Shown here one piece after another: positions 5,693 through 62,220 of a DNA stretch of 64,000 bases. This DNA comes from Eledone cirrhosa (Eukaryota): contig OZ024742.1 in assembly GCA_964016885.1 (NCBI GenBank), positions 357,058,001-357,122,000 of the forward strand. Direction: 5' to 3'. The notes under the pieces were generated by a model. It had not been told where the DNA came from, searched no databases, and saw only the letters and a list, made by a program, of their open reading frames with translations. The position numbers were made by a program, and so were the translations under genes. How positions within the stretch are numbered: the stretch's first letter is position 1; each line of letters opens with the position of its first letter.

Positions 5693-5760
5693 TGAGGTTA
5701 AGTTAAGGGTAACATCAAGGAAATTAACTATTTTGGTACCACTAAATTAAATAGTAGAAT
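5693..5760 (-). pseudogene. PLE reverse transcriptase fragment
   Basis: The minus strand translates GTKIVNFLDVTLNLTS, the xxFLD motif of PLE RTs. It is fused out of frame to LFSNCRHKALSTF, the endonuclease C-terminus. Confidence 0.65.
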
Positions 5761-5773
5761 TCTAAACCATAAT

Positions 5774-6309
5774 TTGCATACATTTAACAATAATGAATAT
5801 AATAACACTAACAATATTGATACTATGAATAACATTAACAGCAATATAAGCACTATCAATAGAACATTTCGAAGTAATAATAGTGTTAATATAAATTATA
5901 ATAATAATAAACCGAAATGTAATTGTAAAAATAAACCAGATTGCCCTCTGCAAAATAATCGTCTGGATACAAATTTGGTATATAAATGCACCGTAAAAGC
6001 AAATAACATCGCATACAACTATATAGGGGCAATTTCTTCAACATTTAAATCGAGATTTGGGAATCATAGATGCTCTTTTTTGAATCCTAATAAGAAGTCT
6101 TCGACTTCTTTATCACAACTGATATGGTCATTAAAAGACAAACATTTAAAATACTTGATTTTTTGGATGAAGCTATGTAATAGTAGAATTTACTGGAATT
6201 CGTCAATATCACCTAACTGCAACCTCTGTACCATGGAGAGCCTATTAATATTTACTAATTATGAAAACTTAATTAACAAAAAAAGTGAATTATTCTCAAA
6301 CTGCCTTCA
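5774..6309 (+). pseudogene. GIY-YIG endonuclease of a Naiad-type PLE (fragment)
   Basis: CNCKNKPDCPL...LVYK...YIG...FKSRFGNHRCSF...TSLSQLIWSLK...CNLCTME...LINKKSELFSNCLH. This has the VYx/YIG, catalytic R, CxLC and CxH pattern of this PLE clade. Confidence 0.85.
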
Positions 6310-14427: not shown

Positions 14428-17400
14428 CATCATCATCATCATCATCAACGTTTTACGTCCGTTCTTCCATGCCAGCATGGGTTAGACAGGTTGTCCTGTT
14501 GTGGGCAGTGTGCAGTCAGCGGACCATGCCTTGCTCATACAGGAACTGATTTTGGCTTGATTTCTACAGCTGGATGCCCTTCCTAACACCAACCTCATTT
14601 ACAGTGTGTGCTGGGTGCTTTTTCCGTGGCGCCTACACGTCCACTTTACAGTGTGGGCTGGGTGTTTTTTTGCCGTGGCACCTCCACGACCACCTTGCAG
14701 TGGGAGGGTGTGGGGCATATTATCTATATGCTTCAGCATGTACCCATGGGAGGTCAGGTACTCTGTATTACTGCGTGACGCCAGAGGTCACGGTCATGTG
14801 TCATCGCCTTTGAGAGGTGTAATTGGGTAAGGTCCGCTTTTATCACCTCATCCCAGGTCTTCTTGGGTCTCCCCACTCCACGGTTTCCATTGACTTCTAG
14901 TGCTCTGTACCTTTTTATGCAGCTGTCATCCTTCATACGCATCACATGTCCATACCAACGCAACCGCCTCTCCTGCACACAGCATTTGATTTCTCTTATG
15001 CTCAGTCTCTCTCTCAATTCATTTATGCTTTGTCATTCACGTATATTACTATTACACACCCATTGGAGCATGCAGGCTTCATTTCTTTCTAATTTACGTA
15101 AGTCTTCCACCTTCAGCCCCCCGGTCTCACAACCATGTAACATTAGTGTTCGGATACACACATCATATAGTCTGCCTTTCATTTTGAGGGAGAAGCCTTT
15201 TGGAGCTAGCAGTGGCAGTAGTTCCTTGAACTTCTTCCATCCCATTCTTACCCTAGTTATTGTACTTTCTGAACATCCACCTTCGCTGCTAATTCGGTCA
15301 CCTAGGTAGCAGAAGCTGTTTACTGTTTCTAGAGAGCCCTCCCAGAGATTTGTGGTACTTGTTTCCTGTGGCTGTTTGCTTCTTGCTGTCCAAGCACAGC
15401 TGCTGCATGTGAAGCCTACATTCTTAATTAAGCATCCTGAGATCCCGCTACATCTCTTGTGTACCCATTGTTTGCATTTGAGGCAGAGAATGGAGTTACT
15501 ACCTACACCTTTCCTACATACTGAGCAAGGCCATTTCTCTGAGGGGATCTGGGTTCTGTTTTCTCATCTACTTACAAGGACCTTAGTCTTTGTCATGTTG
15601 ACTTTGAGACCCTTTCTTTCTAGTCCCTGCTTCCAAGTTTGGAATTTCTTCACTAGTTCAACCATAGATTCAGCTATAAGTGCGAGGTCATCAGCATACA
15701 GGAGTTCCCATGGGCATCCAGTCTTAAACTCCTCCGTTATTGCCTGCAGGACTATGATGAACAGGAGAGGGCTAAGAACAGAGCCCTGGTGGACACCAAC
15801 CTGTATGCTAAATTCCTCGCTATACTCATTGCTAATCCTTACTTTGCTGACTGCTCCCCTCTACATGGCTTGTACAGCTTTCACAAGCCATTCATCTACT
15901 CCTAGTTTTCTAAGAGCCTACCAGATTACAGCACATGGAACTCTGTCAAAGGCTTTCTCGAGATCGACGAATGCCAGGTAGAGTGGCTTACTTTTAGCTA
16001 GGTACTTTTCCTGTAACTGCCTCACAAGGAAGAGGGCATCAGTGGTGCCTCTTCCTGGTACAAACCCAAATTGCATCTCATCTAGTTTCACCCGGTCCCT
16101 AATCAACTGTGCTATAACTCATTCTGTTACTTTCGTGACCTGGTCCATCAGCTTTATACCTCTATAGTTTCCTCTATCTAGTGCATCACCTTTACCTTTG
16201 TAGCAGTTGACAATGATGCTACTGCACCAATCTTTTGGTATGACACCTTCTAGTATTATCTGGTTAAAAATACGTGTGGTTATAGTGTGACCTACAAACC
16301 CAGATGCCTTCAGCATCTTGGCAGCTATACCCGATGGACCGGTTGCCTTCCCCATCTTGATATCTTTGATTGCCTTACTTACTACATTGCTGCTGACTTG
16401 TACTGCTGGCCCCTCTATAGGGTCTACTTGGGGTAGGGTCTCTTCTTCCCATGCATTCTCCACATTTAGTAATCTACCATAATGGCTCTTCCATGCATCT
16501 TTCTTCTCAACACTTGTGAGGGCAAGCTCATCTTTATCATTCCAGAGACATTTCTCTCCAATGACATCACAATTCTCTCTGACACACTGCCTAGGCTTCC
16601 CTCTTGGTCTCTATGTAATGTACCCTGCTCCCCCCCCCGTTCTTCCATTCTTTCCATGCCTGTCTCTTGGCCTTAACTGCCTCATCTACCTTATTGTTCC
16701 ACCACCAAGTCACTCTCCTCCTGCTTGCGGTCTTACTCCAGCCACAGACCTCATCCGTCACCTCTAGTAAGTTATTTTTTAGGAACTCCCAGTGCTCTTC
16801 TACATTGAATGTCTCTATCTGTTCTTCTTTACTGTCGTAGGCATTGAGTAAAATATCTTTAAATCTGTTACTGGCTGAGGGGTCTTTCAGCTTCCAGATC
16901 TTTCTTCTGCAGGTTGGCCTCTGTTTCCAGGTTTATCTAGTTCTGACCGTGAGGTTGCTGACAACTAAGCTAAGTTGGGAGGTACATTCCTCACTAGAGT
17001 AGGCTTTTGTGTTTACGACCATCCATCTGTCACATCCTCTGATGAGGATAAAATCTATCTGACTAGAATGTTCCCCTGATCTATAGGTGATCAGGTGGTT
17101 GTCGGGTTTTTTTGAAGATTGTGTTACATATCGACATGTCATTGGCGTCGCAGAATTCTAGAAGTCTGAATCCTTCTTCATTTCTTGTGCCAACCCCGTG
17201 GCCTCCATGGACTCTATTGAAGCCGTCACAGTGTTTACCTACATGTCTGTTAAAATCTCCTGCGATGATTAGGAAGTTGTTGTCGTTTGTTAGAACAGTA
17301 GTGTGCATTAGGGACTCGTAAAACCTATCCTTAAGTTCGTCTGGCAACCCCGATTCGGGTGCGTAAGCTGATATTATTGTGGTAATTGTTTTATTCAGGA

Positions 17401-17870
17401 CTAGTCTGAGTTTAATGATTGTTGCATTTACCCTGTACACTGAGATTACTTTATATACCCACTTGTCAGCTAGTAATATACCTACACCACCCATCCCATA
17501 GTCATTTTTTCCCCAGAAAAATTTGTAGCACTGACTTTTTCCTACAAGGACTCTAGCAGACTCTCATCTCCATCTAGTCTCTTGCACACAACATACATCA
17601 ATTTCCTTTCGCTCCAGCAATTCTACAATTTCTCCTGCTCTTCCTTTCATTGTGTTTACATTGATGGTACCAACTCGGAGTTTTGGGCATTTGTCGACAC
17701 TCGTAGGGAAGGGTCGATTTTTGCAGGGGGGTGTGTGTGCTTCCTCTTTCTGGATTGGGGCTTCACATGGGTGCTTGGTAGCTCACGGATTCATATTCAT
17801 TTCATCTATTAATTCAGAGTTGCTCCAATTTATTCTCAGCTCATCCATACATAATGGTAGGAAAATTCAG
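14428..17870 (-). mobile_element. Near-full-length RTE LINE, inactivated (APE endonuclease, RT, (GAT)n tail)
   Basis: Minus-strand ORF pieces: GVGILL...ISAYAP...AGDFN (APE); NYRGIKLMD, QFGFVPGRGTTDA, FVDLEKAFDRV (RT); RLRWYGHVMR. Tail at 14428-14446. Many stops and frameshifts. Confidence 0.95.
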
Positions 17871-26429: not shown

Positions 26430-29400
26430 TTCTGTCTCACTGTTCTAAATAATCTTCTCCACGCTTGTTCTAAAATAATCTTCTCTTTGCTAACTACCCC
26501 ATACCCTGCCCCCACTCTCCACCTTTATTATTTGGACCAATCACAAGTCAACGGCCTATGCTATCACTTCTGGCTGCTTTTCGATATGATGGATGGACTA
26601 AGGAATTTCTGGAGAGTCTGAAGAATCTGGACACTCGATGACAATGCCAAAGATAACGACAAATTCACCTCATGCTGCCGGACGAAAGGGTAACGCCCCC
26701 TCGTCTTTGTTTCGGCCGCGGATGGCCAACATAACCCCAACTCCATCCCCCTCACCCCTCCCTGCGCCCCATCCTCCAAACACAATCCAAAACTTCAGAG
26801 TTGGTACCATGAATGTAGGCACCTTAAAAGGCCGCTCTAACGAGGTTGAAGAAATGCTTGAACGTAAGGAGGTTGATGTTTGCTGTATCCAAGAGACCAG
26901 GTGGAGGGGCGGGTCGGCTAGATTCATTGTGGGTAAAAAACGTTGCTATAAGCTTTTCTGGGTGGGAAATGACAATGGGATAGGTGGGGTAGGAATCATG
27001 TTAGCAGAAAAATGGGTGGATAAGATAATACATGTAAATAGAGTGAATGACAGAATAATTAAAATAAGACTTGTTCTAAATAGAACTACTGTGACAGTAA
27101 TATCTGCATACGCGCCCCAATCCGGACTGCCTGGCGCTATAAAAGAGAGATTCTATGAGACACTGATGCTCACTACCTCCCAAATAACCGACAGTGACTA
27201 TATAATTATTGCTGGCGACCTAAATGGCCACGTTGGACAACATTGTGACGGCTATGACGGAATCTACGGAGGCTATGGGTTTGGTACTAGAAACGAGGAA
27301 GGCTCCAGAATCCTGGAATTCTGTGATGCAAATAACCTAACTATCTGTAACACTAACTTCAAAAAACGAGACAATCACTTGATCACCTACAGATCAGGGG
27401 AACATACCAGCCAGGTAGATTATATCCTTACCAGAAGATGTGACAGAGTGTCTGTTGTAAACACTAAATCCCTCCCCCATGAAGAATGCACCTCCCAACA
27501 TAGACTGATAATTAGCAACCTCATAGTCAGGACGAGACGTACTAGACAGCAGAAGAGGACTATCCTCAGGAGAAAAATATGGAAGCTAAAGGACCCCACA
27601 GCCAGAAATAAATTTACAAGCATATTACTTGATGCTTTCGACAGTAAGAAAGAGCAATTAGAGTCGTACAATATAGAGGAACAGTGGGAATTCCTGAAAG
27701 CAAACCTGCTGATGGCGGCGGACGAAGTCTGTGGCTGGAGCAGGCCTGTAGGCAGGAGGAGAGTAACAAGGTGGTGGAACAGTAAGGTGGAGCAGTCAAT
27801 TTAGGCCAAAAAGCAGGCATGGAAAGTATGGCAGGATGGGGGAAGTAGAGAAGACTATCAAGTGGCCAGGAGGGAAGCTAGGAGACAAGTGTACTTTGCA
27901 AGAAGGGAAGCAGAGGAAAGAAAGTTCAAGCATGTTCTACAACGTGAGGACCAAAAACGTGAGGTGTTCAGGATTGCTAGGCAATGTGTCAAGGAAAACC
28001 TAATATTGTCGAGGAGAAGTGTGTACTTAATGATGATGGCATACTTGCCATCACTGACGCTGATAAGAAGGTAGCTTGGAAGTGTCACTACGAAAGGAGA
28101 ATAAATGGGAGAAAGACAGTCTCCCCCACATCGACCCAATAGAGAGACCAGCAGTGTTAGTCGCAGGTAGTATAATAAGTAAGGCAATCAAAGATATGAA
28201 GACAGGTAAGGCGACTGGGCCTTCGTAAATAGTTGCTGAGATGCTGAAAGCCTCTGGAACGGTGGGACACACCATGGTCACCCGGATAGTTAACCAAGTC
28301 ACACAGAATAGGGTTGTTCCAAAGGACTGGCATAGCAGCAGCATCATTAACTGCTACAAGGGTAAAGGAGACGCCCTAGAATGTGTAACTATAGAAGCAT
28401 TAAATTAATCGACCAGGTCATGAAGGTCACAGAAAAAGTAATAGCGCAACTAATCAGAGAGAGAATTGATCTAGATGAAATGCAGTTCGGGTTTGTGTCA
28501 GGCAAAAGTACCACAGACGCTCTTTTCATTGTACGACAACTACAGGAGAAATACCTAGCTAAAAGTAAACCCCTATACTTAGCTTTTGTCGACTTGGAGA
28601 AAGCCTTCAACAGAGTCCCCCATTCCATTATCTGGTGTTCTCTTAGAAAACTAGGTGTTGATGAATGGCTTGTGAGAGCTATACAAGCCATGTATAAAGA
28701 AACAGTCAGCAAGGTTAGAATTAACAATGAATATAGTGAAGAGTTTAGCATAAAAGTTGGTGTTCATCAGGGCTTTGTTCTTAGCCCCCTACTATTTATT
28801 ATTGCCCTTCAGGCTATAACATTGTAGTTCAAGACCGGCTGCCCATGGGAATTCCTATACACAGATGATCTAACGCTCATAGCTGAATCAATGGCCGAGC
28901 TAGAGAAAAAATTCCAAACATGGAAGCACGGCCTAGAATCAAAAGGCCTTAAAATTAACATGGCTAAGACTAAAGTTCTAATTTGTAGGAAAGAAAATAA
29001 GGCGCCGGTCCCTTCCAGGAAATGGCCATGCTCAGTGTGTAGGAAAGGCGTAGGTAGAAACTCCATTTTATGTCCCAAATGCAAAGTATGGGTGCATAAA
29101 AGATGTAGTGGGATCACAGGTAAGCTAACTAAGAACATAGATTTTACATGTGGCCGGGGCTCTGGTGCAATAAGTAGCAGCAAGTGCCCACAAAATACTA
29201 GCTCTTTCAATTGCGCAGAGGGATCTATAGAAATAGTGGACAGCTTGCGTTACCTGGGTGACAAAATCAGCAGCGGGGGAGGGTGCTCTGAAAGTACAGT
29301 AGCTAGAGTCAGAACTGGATGGAAAAAGTTCAGAGAACTTATACCACTATTAGCCGCTAAAGGGTTCTCCCTAAAAATGAAAGACAGGCTGTATGATGCC

Positions 29401-30200
29401 TGCATACAAACAGCAATGTTGCATGGCAGTGAGATCTGGGCATTGTGTGCAGAAGATATACGCAGACTAAAGAGGAACGAAGCTTGCATGCTCCGCTGGA
29501 TGTGTAATAGTAATATACGTGAATGGCTAAGCATAAACGAACTAAGGGAAAAATTAGAAATAAGAGGGATCAGATGTTGTTTACTCGAGAGAAGGCTACG
29601 TTGGTATGGTCACGTGATGCGCATGAAAGACGACAGCTGTATAGAAAAGTGCAGGGCAATAAAGATAGATGGTAGCCACGGAGTAGGCAGACCCAGAAAA
29701 ACCTGGGACGACCTGATAAATTCCGACCTCACACACTTACACCTCTCCAAGACAATGTCACTGGACCGAGATTTTTGGTGGTACTCAGTAATAGAGAAAA
29801 CCCGCCTTACCTAAATACAAAGTAAAACCTACTACAGTCAGTAGGCATCTCTAGCAAAATACACACCCGTCCCACCACCCCCACCCATCCACGCCGCCCC
29901 TTTCAATGTAAAGTTATGTTGGTGCCACAACATCCAGGCCGAAACAAATGAGGTCGTGTAGGTGTCACAACAAAAATACACACAGTCCACGCTGTAATGT
30001 GGCCGTGTAGGCAACATGGTAAAAACCTCCCAGTCCCACACTGTAAATGTGGTTGGTGTTAGGAAGGGCATCCAGCTGTAGAAACCCCGCCAGACAGTCC
30101 TATGCGAGCAAGACAATCACTCTTGCCTCAAGTGGGAAAACTCCCGTCCAAACCCATGCAAGCGTGGAACATGGACGTTAAACGATGATGATGATGATGA

Positions 30201-36066: not shown

Positions 36067-36092
<26 letters not shown>

Positions 36093-36100
<8 letters not shown>

Positions 36101-39100
36101 GTGAATATAGACATAGAATATTCGAAAATATTCTGTATGTTTATAATAAACATTTTGAAGACCTAATCGCTATAGAATAGAATACGTCACGTATTACAAT
36201 TAGATTCTCGATAAAAGCAAGGGAAGTAATCTACGCGTTTCATTCTCGTTAGAAATCATCAGGACTACATATCCAGTGCTTTTATCGAGAATGACACAGC
36301 TAGAGACTTATAGAATACTTAGCTGTGTACAGGAACTGGTTTGAAAGAGCGGTTGCCGGTCCGGCAGAAATTAGAAATTGGAATAGATGCTCTGAAATAG
36401 CGATATATATGTGAATATAGACATAGAATATTCGAAAATATTCTGTATGTTTATAATAAACATTTTGAAGACCTAATCGCTATAGAATAGAATACGTCAC
36501 GTATTACAATTAGATTCTCGATAAAAGCAAGGGAAGTAATCTACGCGTTTCATTCTCGTTAGAAATCATCAGGACTACATATCCAGTGCTTTTATCGAGA
36601 ATGACACAGCTAGAGACTTATAGAATACTTAGCTGTGTACAGGAACTGGTTTGAAAGAGCGGTTGCCGGTCCGGCAGAAATTAGAAATTGGAATAGATGC
36701 TCTGAAATAGCGATATATATGTGAATATAGACATAGAATATTCGAAAATATTCTGTATGTTTATAATAAACATTTTGAAGACCTAATCGCTATAGAATAG
36801 AATACGTCACGTATTACAATTAGATTCTCGATAAAAGCAAGGGAAGTAATCTACGCGTTTCATTCTCGTTAGAAATCATCAGGACTACATATCCAGTGCT
36901 TTTATCGAGAATGACACAGCTAGAGACTTATAGAATACTTAGCTGTGTACAGGAACTGGTTTGAAAGAGCGGTTGCCGGTCCGGCAGAAATTAGAAATTG
37001 GAATAGATGCTCTGAAATAGCGATATATATGTGAATATAGACATAGAATATTCGAAAATATTCTGTATGTTTATAATAAACATTTTGAAGACCTAATCGC
37101 TATAGAATAGAATACGTCACGTATTACAATTAGATTCTCGATAAAAGCAAGGGAAGTAATCTACGCGTTTCATTCTCGTTAGAAATCATCAGGACTACAT
37201 ATCCAGTGCTTTTATCGAGAATGACACAGCTAGAGACTTATAGAATACTTAGCTGTGTACAGGAACTGGTTTGAAAGAGCGGTTGCCGGTCCGGCAGAAA
37301 TTAGAAATTGGAATAGATGCTCTGAAATAGCGATATATATGTGAATATAGACATAGAATATTCGAAAATATTCTGTATGTTTATAATAAACATTTTGAAG
37401 ACCTAATCGCTATAGAATAGAATACGTCACGTATTACAATTAGATTCTCGATAAAAGCAAGGGAAGTAATCTACGCGTTTCATTCTCGTTAGAAATCATC
37501 AGGACTACATATCCAGTGCTTTTATCGAGAATGACACAGCTAGAGACTTATAGAATACTTAGCTGTGTACAGGAACTGGTTTGAAAGAGCGGTTGCCGGT
37601 CCGGCAGAAATTAGAAATTGGAATAGATGCTCTGAAATAGCGATATATATGTGAATATAGACATAGAATATTCGAAAATATTCTGTATGTTTATAATAAA
37701 CATTTTGAAGACCTAATCGCTATAGAATAGAATACGTCACGTATTACAATTAGATTCTCGATAAAAGCAAGGGAAGTAATCTACGCGTTTCATTCTCGTT
37801 AGAAATCATCAGGACTACATATCCAGTGCTTTTATCGAGAATGACACAGCTAGAGACTTATAGAATACTTAGCTGTGTACAGGAACTGGTTTGAAAGAGC
37901 GGTTGCCGGTCCGGCAGAAATTAGAAATTGGAATAGATGCTCTGAAATAGCGATATATATGTGAATATAGACATAGAATATTCGAAAATATTCTGTATGT
38001 TTATAATAAACATTTTGAAGACCTAATCGCTATAGAATAGAATACGTCACGTATTACAATTAGATTCTCGATAAAAGCAAGGGAAGTAATCTACGCGTTT
38101 CATTCTCGTTAGAAATCATCAGGACTACATATCCAGTGCTTTTATCGAGAATGACACAGCTAGAGACTTATAGAATACTTAGCTGTGTACAGGAACTGGT
38201 TTGAAAGAGCGGTTGCCGGTCCGGCAGAAATTAGAAATTGGAATAGATGCTCTGAAATAGCGATATATATGTGAATATAGACATAGAATATTCGAAAATA
38301 TTCTGTATGTTTATAATAAACATTTTGAAGACCTAATCGCTATAGAATAGAATACGTCACGTATTACAATTAGATTCTCGATAAAAGCAAGGGAAGTAAT
38401 CTACGCGTTTCATTCTCGTTAGAAATCATCAGGACTACATATCCAGTGCTTTTATCGAGAATGACACAGCTAGAGACTTATAGAATACTTAGCTGTGTAC
38501 AGGAACTGGTTTGAAAGAGCGGTTGCCGGTCCGGCAGAAATTAGAAATTGGAATAGATGCTCTGAAATAGCGATATATATGTGAATATAGACATAGAATA
38601 TTCGAAAATATTCTGTATGTTTATAATAAACATTTTGAAGACCTAATCGCTATAGAATAGAATACGTCACGTATTACAATTAGATTCTCGATAAAAGCAA
38701 GGGAAGTAATCTACGCGTTTCATTCTCGTTAGAAATCATCAGGACTACATATCCAGTGCTTTTATCGAGAATGACACAGCTAGAGACTTATAGAATACTT
38801 AGCTGTGTACAGGAACTGGTTTGAAAGAGCGGTTGCCGGTCCGGCAGAAATTAGAAATTGGAATAGATGCTCTGAAATAGCGATATATATGTGAATATAG
38901 ACATAGAATATTCGAAAATATTCTGTATGTTTATAATAAACATTTTGAAGACCTAATCGCTATAGAATAGAATACGTCACGTATTACAATTAGATTCTCG
39001 ATAAAAGCAAGGGAAGTAATCTACGCGTTTCATTCTCGTTAGAAATCATCAGGACTACATATCCAGTGCTTTTATCGAGAATGACACAGCTAGAGACTTA

Positions 39101-41348
39101 TAGAATACTTAGCTGTGTACAGGAACTGGTTTGAAAGAGCGGTTGCCGGTCCGGCAGAAATTAGAAATTGGAATAGATGCTCTGAAATAGCGATATATAT
39201 GTGAATATAGACATAGAATATTCGAAAATATTCTGTATGTTTATAATAAACATTTTGAAGACCTAATCGCTATAGAATAGAATACGTCACGTATTACAAT
39301 TAGATTCTCGATAAAAGCAAGGGAAGTAATCTACGCGTTTCATTCTCGTTAGAAATCATCAGGACTACATATCCAGTGCTTTTATCGAGAATGACACAGC
39401 TAGAGACTTATAGAATACTTAGCTGTGTACAGGAACTGGTTTGAAAGAGCGGTTGCCGGTCCGGCAGAAATTAGAAATTGGAATAGATGCTCTGAAATAG
39501 CGATATATATGTGAATATAGACATAGAATATTCGAAAATATTCTGTATGTTTATAATAAACATTTTGAAGACCTAATCGCTATAGAATAGAATACGTCAC
39601 GTATTACAATTAGATTCTCGATAAAAGCAAGGGAAGTAATCTACGCGTTTCATTCTCGTTAGAAATCATCAGGACTACATATCCAGTGCTTTTATCGAGA
39701 ATGACACAGCTAGAGACTTATAGAATACTTAGCTGTGTACAGGAACTGGTTTGAAAGAGCGGTTGCCGGTCCGGCAGAAATTAGAAATTGGAATAGATGC
39801 TCTGAAATAGCGATATATATGTGAATATAGACATAGAATATTCGAAAATATTCTGTATGTTTATAATAAACATTTTGAAGACCTAATCGCTATAGAATAG
39901 AATACGTCACGTATTACAATTAGATTCTCGATAAAAGCAAGGGAAGTAATCTACGCGTTTCATTCTCGTTAGAAATCATCAGGACTACATATCCAGTGCT
40001 TTTATCGAGAATGACACAGCTAGAGACTTATAGAATACTTAGCTGTGTACAGGAACTGGTTTGAAAGAGCGGTTGCCGGTCCGGCAGAAATTAGAAATTG
40101 GAATAGATGCTCTGAAATAGCGATATATATGTGAATATAGACATAGAATATTCGAAAATATTCTGTATGTTTATAATAAACATTTTGAAGACCTAATCGC
40201 TATAGAATAGAATACGTCACGTATTACAATTAGATTCTCGATAAAAGCAAGGGAAGTAATCTACGCGTTTCATTCTCGTTAGAAATCATCAGGACTACAT
40301 ATCCAGTGCTTTTATCGAGAATGACACAGCTAGAGACTTATAGAATACTTAGCTGTGTACAGGAACTGGTTTGAAAGAGCGGTTGCCGGTCCGGCAGAAA
40401 TTAGAAATTGGAATAGATGCTCTGAAATAGCGATATATATGTGAATATAGACATAGAATATTCGAAAATATTCTGTATGTTTATAATAAACATTTTGAAG
40501 ACCTAATCGCTATAGAATAGAATACGTCACGTATTACAATTAGATTCTCGATAAAAGCAAGGGAAGTAATCTACGCGTTTCATTCTCGTTAGAAATCATC
40601 AGGACTACATATCCAGTGCTTTTATCGAGAATGACACAGCTAGAGACTTATAGAATACTTAGCTGTGTACAGGAACTGGTTTGAAAGAGCGGTTGCCGGT
40701 CCGGCAGAAATTAGAAATTGGAATAGATGCTCTGAAATAGCGATATATATGTGAATATAGACATAGAATATTCGAAAATATTCTGTATGTTTATAATAAA
40801 CATTTTGAAGACCTAATCGCTATAGAATAGAATACGTCACGTATTACAATTAGATTCTCGATAAAAGCAAGGGAAGTAATCTACGCGTTTCATTCTCGTT
40901 AGAAATCATCAGGACTACATATCCAGTGCTTTTATCGAGAATGACACAGCTAGAGACTTATAGAATACTTAGCTGTGTACAGGAACTGGTTTGAAAGAGC
41001 GGTTGCCGGTCCGGCAGAAATTAGAAATTGGAATAGATGCTCTGAAATAGCGATATATATGTGAATATAGACATAGAATATTCGAAAATATTCTGTATGT
41101 TTATAATAAACATTTTGAAGACCTAATCGCTATAGAATAGAATACGTCACGTATTACAATTAGATTCTCGATAAAAGCAAGGGAAGTAATCTACGCGTTT
41201 CATTCTCGTTAGAAATCATCAGGACTACATATCCAGTGCTTTTATCGAGAATGACACAGCTAGAGACTTATAGAATACTTAGCTGTGTACAGGAACTGGT
41301 TTGAAAGAGCGGTTGCCGGTCCGGCAGAAATTAGAAATTGGAATAGAT
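36093..41348 (-). repeat. Tandem array of a 310-bp hammerhead-containing unit (retrozyme-like), about 17 copies
   Basis: GTGAATATAG recurs at 36101, 36411, 36721 ... 41061 (period 310). I saw no differences between units. The last unit is cut at 41348. Confidence 0.95.
36226..36268 (-). ncRNA. Type-I hammerhead ribozyme, first of 17 minus-strand copies (every 310 bp, to 41186-41228)
   Basis: GTAGTC-CTGATGA-T-TTCT-AACG-AGAA-T-GAAA-CGCG-TA^GATTAC. Intact core, stem I GTAGTC/GATTAC, palindromic stem III ACGCGT. Confidence 0.88.
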
Positions 41349-41845
41349 TTCTAACGAGAATGAAACGCGTAGATTACTTCCCTTGCTTTTATCGAGAATC
41401 TAATTGTAATACGTGACGTATTCTATTCTATAGCGATTAGGTCTTCAAAATGTTTATTATAAACATACAGAATATTTTCGAATATTCTATGTCTATATTC
41501 ACATATATATCGCTATTTCAGAGCATCTATTCCAATTTCTAATTTCTGCCGGACCGGCAACCGCTCTTTCAAACCAGTTCCTGTACACAGCTAAGTATTC
41601 TATAAGTCTCTAGCTGTGTCATTCTCGATAAAAGCACTGGATATGTAGTCCTGATGATTTCTAACGAGAATGAAACGCGTAGATTACTTCCCTTGCTTTT
41701 ATCGAGAATCTAATTGTAATACGTGACGTATTCTATTCTATAGCGATTAGGTCTTCAAAATGTTTATTATAAACATACAGAATATTTTCGAATATTCTAT
41801 GTCTATATTCACATATATATCGCTATTTCAGAGCATCTATTCCAA
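41346..41845 (+). repeat. Inverted 1.6 units of the 310-bp repeat
   Basis: Exact reverse complement of the array. It joins through a GAT microhomology at 41346-41348 and ends in (TA)n. Confidence 0.95.
41645..41687 (+). ncRNA. Type-I hammerhead ribozyme (plus-strand copy)
   Basis: GTAGTCCTGATGATTTCTAACGAGAATGAAACGCGTAGATTAC; predicted cleavage between 41681 and 41682. Confidence 0.88.
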
Positions 41846-42051
41846 TATATATATATATATATATATATACAGAGAGAGGGGAGCATGTGGGAGTGAGTCA
41901 GTGTTACAACAAATTAACAAACCATACTTGAGGATACGTGTTTCACCCAAATAATTCTTCAACTGCTCACCAACCTTGGATATAACTTCCCAGCTTTTCA
42001 CTACAATATCTGCATTTAGGTAGATATGAGTGTAACTATAGTTACATATAT

Positions 42052-44135
42052 ACAGTCTCCCCCCACATCGACCCAATAGAGGGACCAGCAGTGTTAGTCC
42101 AGGGTAGTACAATAAGCAAGGCAATCAAAGATATGAAGACGGGTAAGGCGGCTGGTCCTTCGGAAATAGTTGCTGAGATGCTGAAGGCATCTGGTTCGGT
42201 GGGACACACCATGGTCACCCGGATAGTTAACCAAGTCGTACAGAATGGGGTTGTTCCGAAGGACTGGCGTAGCAGCATCATCGTTAACTGCTATAAGGGA
42301 AAAGGAGACGCCCTAGATAGGAGTAACTATAGAGGCATTAAATTAATCGACCAGGTCATGAAGGTCACGGAAAAAGTAATAGCGCAACTAATCAGAGAGA
42401 GAATTGATCTAGATGAAATGCAGTTCGGGTTTGTGTCAGGCAAAAGTACCACAGACGCTCTTTTCATTGTACGACAACTACAGGAGAAGTACCTAGCTAA
42501 AAGTAAACCCCTATACTTAGCTTTCGTCGACTTGGAGAAAGCCTTCGACAGAGTCCCCCGTTCCATTATCTGGTGGTCTCTTAGAAAACTAGGTGTTGAC
42601 GAATGGCTTGTGAGAGCTATACAAGCCATGTATAAAGAAACAGTCAGTAAGGTTAGAATTAACAACGAATATAGTGAAGAGTTTAGCGTAAAAGTTGGTG
42701 TCCATCAGGGCTCTGTTCTTAGCGCCCTACTATTTATTATTGCCCTTCAGGCTATAACAGAGGAGTTCAAGACCGGCTGCCCATGGGAACTCCTATACGC
42801 AGATGATCTAACGCTCATAGCTGAATCAATGACCGAACTAGAGAAGAAATTCCAAACATGGAAGCACGGCCTAGAATCAAAAGGCCTTAAAATTAACCTG
42901 GCTAAGACTAAAGTTCTAGTTTGTAGGAAAGAAAATAAGGCGGCAGTCCCATCTGGGAAATGGCCATGCTCAGTGTGTAGGAAAGGCGTAGGTAGAAACT
43001 CCATTTTATGTCCCAAATGCAAAGTATGGGTGCATAAAAGATGTAGTGGGATCACAGGTAAGCTAACTAAGAACATAGATTTTACATGTGGCCGGTGCTC
43101 TGGTGCAATAAGTAGCAGCAAGTGCCCACAAAATACTAGCTCCTTCAACTGCACAGAGGGTTCTATAGAAATAGTGGACAGCTTCCGTTACCTGGGTGAC
43201 AAAATCAGCAGTGGGGGAGGGTGCTCTGAAAGTACAGTAGCTAGAGTCAGAACTGGATGGAAAAAGTTCAGAGAGCTTATACCACTATTAGCCGCTAGAG
43301 GGTTCTCCCTAAAAATGAAAGGCAGGTTATACGATGCCTGCATACGAACAGCAATGCTGCATGGTAGTGAGACCTGGGCATTGTGTGCAGAGGATATACG
43401 CAGACTAAAGAGGAACGAAGCTTGCATGCTCCGCTGGATGTGCAATAGTAATATACGTGAACGGCAAAGCATAAATGAACTAAGGAAAAAATTAGAAATA
43501 AGAGGGATCAGATGTTGTTTACTCGAGAGAAGGCTACGTTGGTACGGTCACGTGATGCGCATGAAAGACGACAGCTGTATAACAAAGTGCAGGGCAATAA
43601 AGATAGACGGTAGCCACGGAGTAGGCAGACCCAGAAAAACATGGGACGAGCTGATAAATTCCGACCTCACACGCTTACACCTCTCCAAGACAATGTCACT
43701 GGACCGAGACCTTTGGCGGTACTCAGTAATAGAGAAGACCCGCCTTACCTAAATACAAAGTTAAAACCTACTACAGTCAGTAGGCATCTCTATCAAAACA
43801 CCTCCCCGTCCCACCACCCCCACCCCATCCATACCGCCCCTTTCAATGTAAAGTTATGTTGGTCCCACAACATCCAGGCCGAAACAAATGAGATCGTGTA
43901 GGTGTCACGACAAAAAAACACACAGTCCACGCTGTAAATATGGCCGTGTAGGCAACACGGTAAAAACCTCCCAGCCCCTCACTGTAAATGTGGTTGGTGT
44001 TAGGAAGGGCATCCAACTGTAGAAAACCCGCCAGACAGTCCTATGCAAGCAAGACAACCACTCTTGCCTCAAGTGGGAAAACCCCTGTCCAAACCCATGC
44101 AAGCGTGGAACACGGACGCTAAACCTGATGATGAT
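42052..44135 (+). mobile_element. 5'-truncated young RTE LINE
   Basis: Colinear with 28116-30204 and ends in GATGATGAT. Confidence 0.95.
42091..43752 (+). CDS. RTE reverse transcriptase, open frame of 553 aa, lacking the endonuclease, with an internal Cys-rich PHD-like finger
   Basis: NYRGIKL, QFGF, FVDLEKAFDRV, GVHQGSVLS, LLYADDL, FRYLG and RLRWYGHV motifs. It has no native start, so it is probably not expressed as such. Confidence 0.85.
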   Translation: MLVQGSTISKAIKDMKTGKAAGPSEIVAEMLKASGSVGHTMVTRIVNQVVQNGVVPKDWRSSIIVNCYKGKGDALDRSNYRGIKLIDQVMKVTEKVIAQLIRERIDLDEMQFGFVSGKSTTDALFIVRQLQEKYLAKSKPLYLAFVDLEKAFDRVPRSIIWWSLRKLGVDEWLVRAIQAMYKETVSKVRINNEYSEEFSVKVGVHQGSVLSALLFIIALQAITEEFKTGCPWELLYADDLTLIAESMTELEKKFQTWKHGLESKGLKINLAKTKVLVCRKENKAAVPSGKWPCSVCRKGVGRNSILCPKCKVWVHKRCSGITGKLTKNIDFTCGRCSGAISSSKCPQNTSSFNCTEGSIEIVDSFRYLGDKISSGGGCSESTVARVRTGWKKFRELIPLLAARGFSLKMKGRLYDACIRTAMLHGSETWALCAEDIRRLKRNEACMLRWMCNSNIRERQSINELRKKLEIRGIRCCLLERRLRWYGHVMRMKDDSCITKCRAIKIDGSHGVGRPRKTWDELINSDLTRLHLSKTMSLDRDLWRYSVIEKTRLT

Positions 44136-44388
44136 ACTCACACATGCACACAAACATGCACACACATATATATATTTGTATTTACTAGTGTAAGTAGAGG
44201 ATCTACTACAGGCTCAGCTGTTTCAACTAGAAGTTATAGACCCAACTGCAATGTCTAACAGCTTGTATGTAGCAAGCCTTTTCCTTTATACCTACTCTGT
44301 TTCTTCTCATGCATAGAGTACAACTTTGATCTGTGGTCTTCACAGTCTCAACACCACAGACATTCAATATGTATAATATACATACATA

Positions 44389-45202
44389 TACGGGATGGAA
44401 GAAGTTCAGGGAGCTACTGCCACTGCTAGCTGCAAAAGGCTTTTCCCTCAAAATGAAAGGCAGACTGTATGATGCGTGTATATGAACAGCAATGTTACAT
44501 GGTAGAGAGACCTGGGTGCTGAAGGTGGACGACTTACGTAGATTAGAAAGAAATGAAGCCTGTATGCTCCGATGGATGTATATTAGTAATTTACGCGAAC
44601 GGCAAAGCATAAACGAATTGAGAGAGAGACTGTGCATAAGAGGAATCAAATGTTGTGTGCAGGAGAGGCGGTTGCATTGGTATGGACATGTGATGCGCAT
44701 GAAGGATGACAGCTGCATAAAAAGGTGCAGAGCACTAGAAGTCAATGGAAACCGCGGAGTGGGGAGACCCAAGAAGACCTGAGATGAGATGATAAAAGCC
44801 GACCTTACCCAATTACACCTCTCAAAGGTGATGACCGTGACCTCTGGTGTCACGCAGTAATACAGAAGACCCGACCCTCCATGGGTACAAGCCAAAGCTG
44901 AAGCATATAGACAATATGCCCACACACCCTCCCACTGTAAAGTGGTTGTGGAAGTGCCACAGCAAAAAAGCACCCAGCCCACACTGTAAAGTGGACGTGT
45001 AGGCACCACGTAAAAAAAGCACCCAGCACTCACTGTAAATGAGGTTGGTGTTAGGAAGGGCTTCCAGCTGTAGAAATCAAGCCAGAATCAGTTCCCGTAT
45101 GAGCAAGGCATGGTCAGCTGACCAGACACTGCCCACAACAGGACAACCTGTCTAACCCATGTTAGCGTGGAAGAACGGATGTAAAACGGTGATGATGATG
45201 AT
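44389..45202 (+). mobile_element. RTE 3' fragment (defective subfamily)
   Basis: Near-identical to 61417-62220. Confidence 0.92.
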
Positions 45203-52099: not shown

Positions 52100-52666
52100 C
52101 CAGGCAGTGTAACTTGGAGTTACTGTAGGTTCACCCGGGTGAGCACTCGATGTTTAGGTTCACTTCAGTGTCGAGGTGTAGAGCTATACAGAGTGTATTA
52201 TCGTGAAAAGATAACAAGGATGATTGGTTACTCCTTCATTACATTTATTGATTGGTGATGCACGTTTCGCCACTGATCAGCTCAAGGTTCGATCTATATC
52301 GATCTTACCCGACTCTGAAATCTGCGGCTCGGCGGACCCCTTAAAATGCTAGTAGAAAATGAATACATGCTATATGATAAAATCAGAAATTCATATGTTG
52401 GTCAATAAAGATTGTTTTGATTGGTGGAATAGATCATAGGGATGTTTTTGCCTGTAGTGCATGTGGGGGTGGATGTGATGATAAAATGGTGGTGACGGTC
52501 ACAGGCTGAGATAGGCTGTGGTGTGGGGGTGGTGGATTGTCGGTAGACAGATTGGCATATATTTGTGCCGGATTTTTGTGTGTGGTGTGAGTGTGGTGTT
52601 GTTGTTTGTGGTAATGGTGTTTATGGTGGTGTAATGGATGTGTTGGTGTTGTCAAATTCAATAAGG

Positions 52667-54008
52667 AGAAGGCAATAATGGAGGAGTTTAAGACCGGATG
52701 CCCATGAGAACTCCTGTATGCTGATGACCTCGCACTTATAGCTGAATTTATGGTAGAACTAGAGAAGAAATTCCAAACTTGGAAGCAGGGATAAGAAAGA
52801 AAGGGTCTCAAAGTCAACATGACAAAGACTAAGGTCCTTGTAAGTAGACGAGAAAACATAACCCAGATCCCCCCAGGGAAATCGCCTTGCTCAGTATGTA
52901 GGAGGGGTGTAGGTAGAAACTCCATTCTCTGCCCCAAATGCAAATAATGGGTACACAAGAGATGTAGCAGGATCTCAGGAAACTTTACTAAGAATGTAGG
53001 CTTCACATGTAGCAACTGTGCTGGGACAGCAAGCCTCAAACAGCCACAGGAAACAAGTACCACTAAACTCTGGGAGGACTCTGTAGAAACAGTAGACAGC
53101 TTCTATTACCTAGGTGACCGAATTAGCAGGGGAGGTGGGTGTTCAGAAAGTAAAAATAACTAGGTTAAGAACGGGATGGAAGAAGTTCAGGGAGCTACTG
53201 CCACTGCTAGCTGCAAAAGGCTTTTCCCTCAAAATGAAAGGCAGACTGTATGATGCGTGTATATGAACAGCAATGTTACATGGTAGTGAGACCTGGGCAC
53301 TGAAGGTGGAAGACTTATGTAGATTAGAAAGAAACGAAGCCTGTATTCTCGAATGGATGTGTAATACGCGAACGGCAAAGCATAAATGAATTGAGAGAGA
53401 GAGACTGAGTATAAGAGGAATCAAATGCTGTGTGCAGGAGAGGCGGTTGCATTGGTATGGACATGTGATGGGTATGAAGGATGACAGCTGCATAAAAAGG
53501 TGCAGAGCACTAGAAGTCGAGTGGGGAGACCCAAGAAGACTTGGGATGAGGTGATAAAAGCCGACCTTACCCAATTACACCTCTCAAAGGTGATGACCGT
53601 GACCTCTGGTGACCTCTGGCGTCACGCAGTAATACAGAAGACCCAACCCCAAATGGGTTCAAGCCGAAGCTGAAGCATATAGACAATATGTCCACACACC
53701 CTCCCACTGCAAAGTGGTCGTGGAGGTGCCACGACAAAAAAGCACCCAGCCCACACTGTAAAGTGGACGTGTAGGCGCCACGGAATAAAAGCACCCAGCC
53801 CACTCTGTAAAGTGGACGTGTAGGCGCCACGGAAAAAAAGCACCCAGCACTCATTGTAAATGAGGTTGGTGTTAGGAAGGGCATCCAGCTGTAGAAATCA
53901 AGCCAGGATTAGTTCCCGTATGAGCAAGACAATGCCCACAACAGGACAACCCGTCTAACCCATGCTAGCGTGGAAGAACGGACGTAAAACGATGATGATG
54001 ATGATGAT
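52667..54008 (+). mobile_element. RTE 3' half (defective subfamily)
   Basis: Starts at AGGCAATAA.GGAGGAG, just before LYADDL, and ends in (GAT)n. Confidence 0.92.
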
Positions 54009-57364: not shown

Positions 57365-60225
57365 TTAAGGATACTATTTATGGTTATGTATATAATAAAA
57401 CCTTTTATAGTTATATATATTTTAAACCCTAAATAGTGAAAGACAGTAATTCATTACTATCTTATTACCAGTAAGATAAATAGCTCAATGTAACAACATC
57501 AGTTGTTTTACAGAGCAGTTATATAGAAATTACATGAATCAAAGTTCAGTTTAAATCATTTATTTGCTTACAATTGTTTCCTCCAAACCGAGGTTCGGAT
57601 TCTTCGGAGCAATTATTTAGTGATTTTTTACATACTCGACCTCCTTTTCAACACAAGAGACATATAGAAACATATGTATATATTGACCCACAGTGGGTTG
57701 ACATCCATCATAATAATATAGCATGGCAATTTACATACAAAGGTTACAGTCATATTAAAGGACAAAATTAAAGTTAAAATAAAAATAAAAATAAAAATAA
57801 AACATTGGCAGTTTATGAAGATAAAGCAAGAGGAAAGTTTAGAGTAGTCAGTGTATGTAACAGTCTCACGTGTGGCATGCACGCGTGTCTTATTTATACA
57901 GGATTATAGTGCGGCAGATTGTTACATGTAAAATAAGCAGTCAAATCAGGCAATCAATAGCATCATGGGGGCTGTATTGTTAAAGCATTTTTCACACACA
58001 CCTGTACGATATAGAAGCCCGTGTGTAGAGAGACACCAAAAATATCAAAAATATTACAAATGTGAAGCAAAATAGCACCACTGTCCTCGCACCCACCACC
58101 ACTCACATAATCCAGGAAACGCAATTTATAGACTACATGTCCATCACACAATCCACGATGATTCAACATTGGGTGCCTGGTGAACCATGTTATAAATCAT
58201 AGCTTGTCGTTCTTTAATTCGATTCATAGATCAGGTTGTTTTTGTTGTGAGAGATGACATTGTATTATATTCCGGAAGTGTGTGTGTGATTAAGGGGAGT
58301 TAATGCGTAAGGGGAGGTAACTAGCTGATTTCCATAGTTAAATTTATTATCCTAAAGTACATTAATGGTGTTTCAAATGAGTCCCTATCATATAAGGTTA
58401 TAAACAATTTCTAAATTTAAGTATCTTATCTATAAATTACAGTGTAGTCTATCAAGAAGGACTAAAGGTATCCATATCAGGATGATTACCTTCTATCATG
58501 GAGTGCCACAACCGAACATTCTACATGAAGAGTCAGACCTCCAAATCAATGATCTTTGTAACTGTAGTCCACCCGCAGAACCTAGCAGGGTCTTATTACT
58601 ATATATGACTCCTGGTAAGCTCTGGGTCATTGTATGTCTGAATGCATGGCAAAGTTAAATATCACCAGGGTGGTCCAGAGATCAATTGTCTCATACAAAG
58701 ACACTAATCTGGCCATCAAGTCATACATATACTCATAACTCATATATCACCTGTAAATAATTCATTGTACTCAGCATATAGAATATATAGCTCTTTTAAT
58801 AAATTAATTACTTAATCTTCTATTTATCCTATGGTGGCACTCCATGTACAGGACAATGTTAGCACAACCAATTCAGTGCCTACAGTTTACATTAATTGTA
58901 TATTAGTGCAATGTAGTCCAAGTAATTTAAAGCCAATATACCAAAAGTAGAAGTACATGGGGATATCTCTAGGGTAAAAGGTACTATGAGTGTGTCACTA
59001 TTTGTGTTAAAGTGGATTAATGGGTGTGGAGATGAGGTGTAAGGTGTGCCCCTGGTGCTAGTTGCTAGAGGTGGTGACGGGTTCAAGTCTGACATTGTTA
59101 TATATTGGGTTTAAAGATTTGGAAGGAGTGCCGGAAGCGGTGTTGGCAAGACGCGAACACTTCTGATTTTTTATTAAGGAGGTTATGGTTAGAGAAGATG
59201 ATAGTATGGGTCTCTAGTAGACAGAGGTTACAAAATGTATTAGGTGGTTTGTACGATGTCGCATTACCTATCACTTCCCATTTAAGTGTATATGGTTTAT
59301 TTTTAGTTTTTAGATAGTGTATGTAGCTAGATAGTGAAGTGGAGTTGGCTAGACTGTGTTTTTTGAAAGAGTGGAGGTGCGAATTGTATCTAGTTTTGAA
59401 GCAGTTAGAAGTAGAGCCTATATAGGTTTCAGAACAGTTGTTAGTTGTGACTGTGTATGAGTATATGATATCCTTGATTAAGTATTTTTTATCTAAAGGG
59501 CAGGTTCTATTTGATATACAGTTACAATTATTCTGGGTGTTAGTCTGCCGGTTATTATGTTGTGTAGAAGTCTGGATGGTAGCTATAGGGTTATGGTTAT
59601 GTGGGTTGTCGTTCCCAGCGTTATTGATTACACTAGTGCTATTACTATTATTTCTATTGATATTAGGGTTAGTTGCTATAATGTTATTTTGAAGGTTTAT
59701 CGTCTGTTGTGATTTAGTTTGTTGGAAGTAAGAATTAATTTTTCTTTTATTGCTACTAGCTATGTGATATGCTATGTTAGGCGTAGTAGAGTAGGAGATA
59801 TTAAAATCTCCTACTCTACTACGCCTAACAATCTGCCGCACTATAATCTTGTATAAATAAGACACGCGTGCATGCCACAAGTGAGACTGTTACATACACT
59901 GACTACTCTAAACTTTCCTCTTGCTTTATCTTCATAAACTGCCTATGTTTTATTTTTTATTTTTATTTTTATTTTAACTTTAATTTTGTCCTTTAATATG
60001 ACTGTAACCTTTGTATGTAAATTGCATGCTATATTATTATGATGGATGTCAACCCACTGTGGGTCAATATATACATATGTTTCTATATGTCACTTGTGTT
60101 GAAAAGGAGGTCGAGTATGTAAAAAATCACTAAATAATTGCTCCGAAGAATCCGAACCTCGGTTTGGAGGAAACAATTGTAAGCAAATAAATGATTTAAA
60201 CTGAACTTTGATTCATGTAATTTCT
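57365..60225 (-). mobile_element. Second Naiad-type PLE remnant with terminal inverted arms
   Basis: Arms 57523-57923 and 59826-60225 are reverse complements and enclose a GIY-YIG ORF. It is flanked by (TA)n and (CT)n(TA)n. A diverged relative of the arm lies at about 62335-62540. Confidence 0.8.
59098..59825 (-). pseudogene. PLE linker and GIY-YIG endonuclease (5'-truncated)
   Basis: ISYSTTPNI...CNCISNRTCPL...IIY...YIGSTSNCFKTRYNSHLHSF...TSLSSYIHYLK...W...CNLCLLE...LLNKKSEVFASCQHR. Confidence 0.88.
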
Positions 60226-60915: not shown

Positions 60916-62220
60916 AGAAGGCAATAACGGAGGAGTTTAAGACCGGATGCCCATGGGAACTCCTGTATGCTGATGACCTTGCACTTATAGCTGAATCTAT
61001 GGTAGAACTAGAGAAGAAATTCCAAACTTGGAAGCAGGGACTAGAAAGAAAGGGTCTCAAAGTCAACATGACAAAGACTAAGGTCCTTGTAAATAGACGA
61101 GAAAACAGAACCCAGATCCCCTCAGGGAAATGGTCTTGCTAAGTATGTAGGAAAGGTGTAGGTAGGAACTCCATTCTCTGCCCCAAATGCAAACAATGGG
61201 TACACAAGAGATGTAGCGGGATCTCAGGAAGCTTAATTAAGAATGTAGGCTTCACATGCAGCAGCTGTACTGGGACAGCAAGCAGCAAACAGCCAGGAAA
61301 TAAGTACCACCAATCTCTGGAGGGCTCTGTAGAAACAGTAGACAGCTTCTGCTACCTAGGTGACCGAATTAGCAGCGGAGGTGGGTGTTCAGAAAGTACA
61401 ATAACTAGGGTAAGAACGGGATAGAAGAAGTTTAGGGAACTACTGCCACTGCTAGCTGCAAAAGGCTTCTCCCTCAAAATGAAAGGCAGACTGTATGATG
61501 CGTGTATATGAACAGCAATGTTACATGGTAGAGAGACCTGGGCGCTGAAGGTGGACGACTTACGTAGATTAGAAAGAAACGAAGCCTGTATGCTCCGATG
61601 GATGTATATTAGTAATATACGCGAACGGCAAAGCATAAACGAATTGAGAGAGAGACTGTGCATAAGAGGAATCAAATGTTGTGTGCAGGAGAGGCGGTTG
61701 CATTGGTATGGACATGTGATGCGCATGAAGGATGACAGCTGCATAAAAAGGTGCAGAGCACTAGAAGTCAATGGAAACCGCGGAGTGGCGAGACCCAAGA
61801 AGACCTGAGATGAGATGATAAAAGCCGACCTTACCCAATTACACCTCTCAAAGGTGATGACCGTGACCTCTGGTGTCACGCAGTAATACAGAAGACCCGA
61901 CCCTCCACGGGTACAAGCCAAAGCTGAATCATATAGACAATATGCCCACACACCCTCCCACTGTAAAGTGGTCGTGGAAGTGCCACAGCAAAAAAGCACC
62001 CAGCCCACACTGTAAAGTGGACGTGTAGGCTCCACGTAAAAAAAGCAGGCAGCACTCACTGTAAATGAGGTTGGTGTTAGGAAGGTCATCCAGCTGTAGA
62101 ATCCAAGTCAAAATCACTTCCTGTATGAGCAAGGCATGGTCAGCTGTATGAGCAAGGCATGGTCTAACCCATGCTAGCATGGGAGAACAGACGTAAAACG
62201 GTGATGATGATGATGATGAT
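60916..62220 (+). mobile_element. RTE 3' half (defective subfamily)
   Basis: Same 5' breakpoint as 52667; (GAT)n tail. Confidence 0.92.

Follow-up and report, generated by a model that had tools for sequence, protein, structure and literature searches.

A 310-bp hammerhead repeat in Eledone cirrhosa forms paired, back-to-back insertions that point to copying by Penelope-like elements

A 64,000-nucleotide stretch of the Eledone cirrhosa genome (GenBank assembly GCA_964016885.1, contig OZ024742.1, positions 357,058,001 to 357,122,000; called the window, in whose own numbering coordinates are given) contains a tandem array of a 310-bp unit with a putative hammerhead ribozyme, and this array was analysed together with the dispersed family to which it belongs. 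Typical insertions of the family consist of two 5′-truncated arms that start at two fixed positions of the unit and point outward into (TA)n microsatellites, a footprint that is also left by intact Penelope-like elements (PLEs) in the same genome. The reading that we favour, with moderate confidence for the mechanism as a whole, is that of a non-autonomous hammerhead retroelement that codes for no protein and relies on an endonuclease-bearing PLE to copy it in trans. The genome holds over 1,300 near-identical, dispersed young insertions of the 310-bp family.

With unit position 1 set at the first base past the predicted cleavage site, the insertion in the window resolves into a long arm at 36093..41348, with the ribozyme sense on the minus strand and 16.95 identical units (a perfect period-310 run with 100% matches), and a short inverted arm at 41346..41846 on the plus strand, with 1.62 units of the haplotype found in the long arm. 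The earlier note had described 36093..41845 as about 17 identical head-to-tail units, laid down as one concatemer from one primer; the identical units hold as far as 41348, the remainder is inverted, and the single concatemer gives way to two concatemeric arms begun at two fixed sites. The arms are joined 5′-to-5′ at a head-to-head junction (41346..41348) with 3 nt of microhomology between them, and their 3′ ends face outward, each into one half of a (TA)n target microsatellite (36080..36092 on the left and 41847..41869 on the right), from which any target duplication would be indistinguishable. The long arm runs from a 5′ truncation at unit position 154 to a 3′ end at position 139, the inner start site, and the short arm from a 5′ truncation at position 285 to a 3′ end at position 165, the outer start site. 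A 26-nt 'tail' of unit positions 140-165 (41821..41846, plus strand) therefore extends one end of the insertion only, and the inner start region at the other end (unit positions 130-139; 36093..36102, minus strand) is a stretch of AU repeats matching the (TA)n target. As already reported, every unit of the long arm carries a hammerhead motif, with 17 minus-strand CUGAUGA cores at 310-bp spacing accompanied by GAAA, palindromic ACGCGU and GUA^GAUUAC. The sole complete copy in the short arm is a type I hammerhead with a long extended stem I (41621..41709, plus strand), in which the CUGAUGA core (41651-41657) is followed by stem II (41658-41671) and by GAAA with the palindromic stem III (41672-41680), and cleavage is predicted after 41681. 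The unit is 35% GC, and its stop-free frames reach at most 59 aa in the ribozyme sense and 46 aa in the opposite sense, in agreement with the earlier statement that no open reading frame (ORF) reaches 60 aa; an ORF check of the unit found no reverse transcriptase (RT) plus GIY-YIG ORF of an autonomous PLE.

Exact matches to a 29-letter pattern gave at least 14,356 ribozyme copies in the genome, a lower bound since variants beyond the pattern are missed, and at 310 bp each these amount to ~4.4 Mb in this one young family. The dispersal of near-identical copies across the genome bears out the earlier view of a retrozyme-type element rather than an ordinary satellite. Genome-wide, 1,362 inner ends into (TA)n were found at unit position ~139 and 1,422 outer ends at positions 165 (1,123) and 170 (299), an inner-to-outer ratio of ~1:1, while reversed-pattern controls returned 0. 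The lists of inner ends (100) and of both outer ends (79 + 23) are all complete for C1 up to 201.75 Mb, and in that part back-to-back end pairs within 20 kb combined an inner with an outer end in 72/72 cases and never like with like (binomial p ~2e-22 against free choice), with a median span of 7.9 units and spans reaching 15 kb. Two arms were also present in 11/14 young loci that had been chosen by similarity. The tail measures 26-31 nt when counted from position 139, or 35-40 nt if priming starts near position 130, a start to which changes at position 131 of terminal units point. There is a strong case that the arms are primed at two sites.

PLE insertions are described as 5′-truncated, often with an adjacent inverted copy, with a tail of 30-40 bp usually at one end and with microsatellites as targets (Craig 2021, 10.1101/2021.04.23.441226; published work is cited from excerpts here and below). 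With a purified PLE protein, predicted to act as a dimer, both strands of AT-rich DNA were cut and extended, and synthesis began at two neighbouring internal positions downstream of the ribozyme, one on either side of the tail (Frangieh 2024, PMC11167929). The E. cirrhosa genome has many young intact elements with RT and GIY-YIG domains and ends in (TA)n, and GIY-YIG candidates exceed 10,000. At least five PLE families with intact frames of 775-905 aa were found (L131-L146, L147-L156, L157-L166, L167 and L168-L169). Members of the 900-aa family occur both as exact head-to-tail tandems of 3,127 bp and as two-armed insertions in (TA)n, with ends at 535/575 and a ribozyme-like site at 431, and both end sites were paired in 9/9 two-armed loci with both ends seen (from a sample of 27 loci, the remainder being one-armed or cut). 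The 775-aa family has a similar (TA)n layout with ends at 548/609 paired in 3/3, so that intact PLEs combined give 12/12 pairs with an inner-plus-outer type of layout, and two end classes were also seen in two further PLE families. A hammerhead-like motif in which CCGAAGA replaces CUGANGA occurs in the 900-aa and 830-aa families and was not found by pattern in the 784-, 796- and 938-aa families. Since the fixed, paired inner and outer ends of the 310-bp repeat match the footprint of intact PLEs in the same genome, the repeat was very probably pasted in by PLE machinery. Mobilisation by a PLE, which had been proposed from the window sequence, is now backed by junction-level evidence.

PLEs and 310-bp repeats also nest in each other's (TA)n ends (L082, L088, L090, L102, L109 and others); in L109 the repeat lies between two ends of the 938-aa family, and such nesting suggests that these sites act as repeated landing spots. 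Two places in the window, 5702-6358 (plus) and 59098-59889 (minus), hold C-terminal fragments that look like endonuclease regions of PLEs; the second belongs to a family with intact 830-aa copies elsewhere and, taken alone, has no Pfam match. One older relative of the unit, L050, ends in (TAA)n and adjoins a decayed PLE ORF; this join was not used as a clue to the partner, as the array ends elsewhere.

The form of the template can be judged from the arms. Among the uncut arms of insertions L101-L120, 37/44 exceed 165 nt, 35/44 exceed one unit and the longest reaches 27 units; since a linear self-cleaved monomer permits arms of no more than 139 or 165 nt, such a template is disfavoured. A 5′ end within 5 nt of the cleavage site was seen in 1/68 cases. 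That the cleavage junction was exact in 271/271 pattern-matched units is evidence against repeated jumping from one linear monomer to the next. Units diverge by 0.10% within a locus compared to 0.75% between loci, and 16 haplotypes were distinguished among 32 loci. By hand count, a single haplotype was present in both arms of 18/18 informative insertions (L101-L120 contain 22 insertions, and the chance is ~0.16 for each), private changes were fixed in every unit of both arms in L113 and L116, and common polymorphic sites were not mixed within any insertion of L101-L120. The simplest account of the low divergence within loci, the shared haplotype of the arms and the fixed private changes is a one-unit bottleneck followed by amplification. 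A circular monomer copied by rolling circle is the probable template. The window array itself had 0 differences across 18.4 scored units, compared to 0.10% within other arrays, and is among the youngest insertions of the family, as the earlier note had supposed. Single units without the common change at position 156 (L033-L042) were considered as mosaics and set aside as selection bias, the loci having been ranked by similarity to the window's rarer haplotype; none were found in L101-L120.

These data also bear on whether short copies were inserted and the arrays then grew in place by unequal crossing-over, as minisatellites do. Local growth has been discussed for vertebrate retrozymes (Li 2026, 10.64898/2026.07.22.740005), and L101, L110, L111 and L115 show signs of later duplication or conversion. 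As the origin of the arrays it is nonetheless very unlikely: the arrays are multi-unit while still nearly free of mutation (none in the window, 0.10% overall), both inverted arms are multi-unit with a single haplotype, two units are needed for the process to start, and more than 1,300 dispersed loci would all have had to expand at once.

At the head-to-head junctions, 24/34 were without inserted bases and the mean overlap was 2.25 nt compared to 0.76 nt at random, in a set that still counts L101 (an internal duplicate), L115 (a duplicated locus) and several long 'inserts' derived from trimming near a substitution. An inverted arm could also arise if a single complementary DNA (cDNA) folded back and primed its own inverted copy, the endonuclease then cutting at the other fixed site, in the manner put forward for PLE head-to-head repeats with palindromic junctions (Arkhipova 2013, PMC3846280). 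This predicts the identical haplotypes seen in both arms, and the 5′ ends of the two arms do lie a few bases apart at L038, L041, L110, L105 and L113. At L043, however, the arms span positions 54-139 and 84-165, and neither could have been copied from the other; the inner-site arm is the longer in 11/26 insertions and the outer-site arm in 15/26 (hand count), so that the first arm would have to switch site; the junctions are mostly not palindromic; and two start sites were directly seen in vitro (Frangieh 2024, PMC11167929). Fold-back is accordingly improbable as the general route, although it may account for some palindromic junctions.

Rolling-circle copying would be preceded by self-cleavage, and the unit carries the layout of a type I hammerhead, with CUGAUGA, a 4-bp stem II, GAAA, the palindromic ACGCGU, GUA^ and a stem I of 6 bp that is prolonged by 16 bp of perfect pairing. 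At its base, stem II has a U-U mismatch where a G-C pair is usual. The Hammerhead_1 scan that the earlier note had proposed as a check did not come out in its favour, in that Rfam gave zero hammerhead-family matches for the unit, both at the gathering score and up to E = 10; the ribozyme call is therefore based on motif and covariation. Four older relatives from the same genome, ~70-80% identical, align collinearly along the whole 310-bp unit, and in comparison with them 14/27 named pairs are altered on both sides while 91% of cells pair, against 78.6% in shuffled controls (0/500 shuffles as high) and 40-47% in slid controls. On this comparison the pairing is conserved and the putative ribozyme is under selection. 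Stem III sequences of the older copies are longer and likewise palindromic, and common variants of the young copies fall in a variable core position, in loop II or in a pair that is kept or restored. A self-duplex of two stem III palindromes was calculated at -9.5 kcal/mol, a lone stem III pair in the monomer costs ~5 kcal/mol, and the lowest-energy fold, which lies 1.5 kcal/mol below the fold with stem II, hides the GAAA core. Folded as a circle, the unit has z = -4.4 (vs 200 shuffles), and z = -3.5 when linear; the opposite strand folds no worse (-77.7 vs -67.8 kcal/mol), and folding for this reason cannot tell the strand. A chimeric origin of the ribozyme module was ruled out, as the entire unit is collinear with the older relatives.

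A mechanism in which a PLE copies circles of the repeat would start with transcription of an existing array. Neighbouring ribozymes would pair through the palindromic stem III and excise 310-nt monomers that are ligated to circles, as the anatomy and published retrozymes suggest. A PLE protein, probably a dimer and proposed on account of the footprint, would cut both (TA)n strands and prime two cDNAs, one per broken end, at two fixed sites that lie 26-40 nt apart and ~130-170 nt downstream of the cleavage site. We favour a step in which each cDNA would circle the template for a random number of turns. The 3′ ends of the cDNAs would then pair over 1-5 nt, each serving to complete the second strand of the other, an order of events suggested by the junction microhomology, and the outcome would be two back-to-back 5′-truncated arms with the tail on one side only. 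A tentative extension of this scheme is that one PLE dimer runs two RTs at once on a single 310-nt circle, with mutual displacement of the cDNAs and products that prime each other's second strand. The lengths of the two arms show no correlation (rho 0.06), which speaks neither for nor against two polymerases on one circle.

A number of observations weigh against this account. By exact patterns, 28/100 inner and 30/102 outer ends on C1 are partnerless; these may be mutated, end elsewhere or belong to one-armed insertions. Three of the 14 young loci picked by similarity (L036, L037 and L039) are without a full second arm, and L101-L120, having been chosen as end pairs, are uninformative on how often a second arm is missing. 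The 5′ end of one arm lies within 12 nt of the start site of the other in 7/27 insertions, the window included, compared to ~15% by chance, and L1-style priming on linear RNA would give such abutting too. A terminal repeat matching the 310-bp unit was present in none of the five sampled autonomous PLE families, among which the 784-aa family is represented by few loci and the terminal repeat of the 796-aa family is unresolved. End-region alignments of the unit to four PLE families gave p = 0.11 to 0.94, none significant, in a sampling that is far from complete given the >10,000 GIY-YIG candidates, and searches of PLE loci with BLAST and a nucleotide profile of the unit returned only separate nested retrozyme copies or weak ribozyme-level matches. 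The covariation test comprises only five related sequences, with the structure drawn from one of them. The ribozyme is predicted to be weak and the monomer a poor enzyme, given the U-U base, the lone stem III pair and the sequestered GAAA; axolotl retrozymes with the same weak features cleave far better as dimers (Cervera 2020, PMC7229834), and in vitro cleavage was reported for only 1/9 frog retrozyme dimers (Li 2026, 10.64898/2026.07.22.740005). In vitro, moreover, a PLE needed no ribozyme cleavage, unprocessed linear RNA was the dominant substrate of the purified protein and ribozyme mutants still inserted (Frangieh 2024, PMC11167929).

This last result fits a different template, a long uncleaved linear transcript of an array on which a PLE would prime at two sites, with the ribozyme weak or used elsewhere and circles as a by-product. 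The predicted weakness of the ribozyme is in keeping with such a template, possible source arrays are long enough (spans up to 15 kb), and a homogeneous source array would likewise yield identical arms. Linear copying, however, only shortens arrays and passes single-unit changes on as mosaics, whereas the new changes fixed in all units of both arms of L113 and L116 require a one-unit bottleneck, and the conserved pairing of the ribozyme must have a use. We regard a linear transcript as unlikely, though to be taken seriously, and retain a circular monomer as the favoured template.

The homogeneity of the window array could, as a further point against the favoured account, owe something to consensus polishing of the assembly. 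That the array is altogether an artefact of assembly is hardly conceivable, even with perfect unit identity and a copy number, 17, that is taken as assembled, because thousands of ends with unique flanks share one architecture and the unit recurs in contigs of other public runs, one of which has loose (TA)n ends at the same positions. In all, the unit was present in six public runs with four organism labels from four studies, none of them listed as RNA, which bears neither way on expression. Contigs were examined for four runs: one had 667 pieces, whose loose ends run into (TA)n at the established end positions, two had a single 340-base contig each (one 310-base turn plus overlap) and one had short pieces. 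The 340-base contigs were not used as evidence for circles, as tandem DNA gives the same, the kind of run is unspecified, and contigs lose strand, ends and circularity. The unit thus exists outside this assembly, though one run may be the assembly's own source. Near-identical units under four organism labels (runs X1, X3, X4 and X6) are equally compatible with close species, mixed samples or transfer.

By its anatomy the family is a non-LTR (long terminal repeat) retrozyme, and on the evidence of its ends it behaves as a non-autonomous PLE. Non-LTR retrozymes are defined as tandem non-coding repeats of ~150-450 bp with GC under 50% (Cervera 2020, PMC7229834), and the 310-bp family has the size, GC content, lack of coding, type I hammerhead motif in each unit and dispersed copies of this class. 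Like metazoan non-LTR retrozymes, it has a non-coding tandem unit of a few hundred bases with low GC, one type I hammerhead each and a stable fold, and autonomous PLEs in the same genome. Among the axolotl retrozymes, HHR_Amex1 has a weak palindromic stem III and HHR_Amex2 a U-U base of stem II, both as found here (Cervera 2020, PMC7229834). Metazoan retrozymes are described in the excerpts as head-to-tail arrays, with target duplications when present, whereas most insertions here have two back-to-back arms with paired ends in (TA)n. Circular RNA has been demonstrated in the former and is a prediction for the 310-bp family; the link of metazoan retrozymes to PLEs was drawn from co-occurrence and terminal-repeat homology, and no such homology to the unit was found in the five PLE families sampled here. 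With endonuclease-bearing PLEs (Craig 2021; Arkhipova 2013; Frangieh 2024), the family shares 5′ truncation, an inverted 5′-truncated copy, a tail at one end, microsatellite targets and a hammerhead upstream of two internal start sites, and it differs from them in the absence of an ORF and in arms of up to 27 whole units of 310 nt, compared to one to three. Non-autonomous Chlamys PLEs such as MRC1 are counted among the closest systems (Craig 2021, 10.1101/2021.04.23.441226). Of the traits of PLE-mobilised elements, the inverted 5′-truncated copy, the one-end tail and intact young endonuclease-bearing PLEs that share the target were all found for the 310-bp family. In L1 twin priming, two target ends prime on the RNA and the inverted junction has microhomology; the internal site to which the second primer anneals varies, and the first cDNA ends close to it. 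Here, by contrast, both sites are fixed, the arms are usually many units long and abutting is confined to the 7/27 insertions mentioned above. A plant LTR retrozyme was ruled out by the type I topology, tandem arms and (TA)n ends, as opposed to the type III hammerheads in LTRs, primer binding site, polypurine tract and 4-bp target duplication described for that class.

In past work, PLE mobilisation of retrozymes was a candidate explanation or was argued from co-occurrence or homology (Cervera 2020, PMC7229834; Li 2026; de la Pena 2020; Goubert 2022), circular templates for PLE tandems were already proposed (Cervera 2014), and the way in which PLEs produce tandem, inverted and tailed insertions was named as unsolved (Craig 2021; Frangieh 2024; Arkhipova 2013). 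A search of titles and the beginnings of abstracts found no description of the 310-bp family, or of inverted arms, tails or paired ends in retrozymes; Repbase and subscription papers, which may catalogue the family, were outside its scope, as were the supplements of Cervera 2020 and Li 2026, either of which may list the host group or show junctions. Each ingredient is known singly, and the combination is what is new, as far as the literature search reached. Strictly paired ends in more than 1,300 insertions provide junction-level evidence on which enzyme moves animal retrozymes, and the family is a large natural dataset on how PLE tandems, inversions and tails form, in which the tiny unit makes arm length and haplotype a read-out of template geometry. 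If double rolling-circle copying holds, the pseudo-LTR, tandem, inverted and tail structures of PLEs generally would be its products, and the 310-nt circle would be a minimal natural substrate. A direct test is feasible, in which several intact PLE ORFs of this genome would be combined with a 310-nt circle and a (TA)n target.

Older relatives of the unit (~70-80% identical, ~314 bp) were seen at L045, L048, L050, L052, L081:329-706, L097 and L163:1111-1626, and L045 and L048 are two-armed, with ends at matching unit positions where mapped. In L111 (second insertion), L110, L101 and L115, either two separated units carry the same rare change or the junction is duplicated internally, which suggests later duplication or conversion, and L115 is a whole insertion duplicated. 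A second tandem hammerhead family (L093:7700-9901, with related copies L075, L094, L141 and L142) has a unit of ~480-510 bp with an internal variable (TA)n; it shares the U-U stem II base, AACA loop, six-base palindromic stem III and GUA^ with the 310-bp unit, has different stem sequences, and likewise begins with an inverted piece. A third hammerhead family (L086:985, L083:9245, L090:6700-8000 and L091:3150-3350), with a near-same stem II and a long stem III, occurs as short back-to-back insertions in (TA)n. Elsewhere in the window, copies of an element of the long interspersed nuclear element (LINE) type, with RT and a PHD finger, lie at 26602-29814, 41986-43752, 14779-17563, 44227-45087, 52434-53102 and 61352-62107, one of them starting ~120 bp to the right of the 310-bp array, and tandem repeats of 47-49 bp adjoin LINE-type copies at 14598, 19211, 44933, 53705 and 61959.

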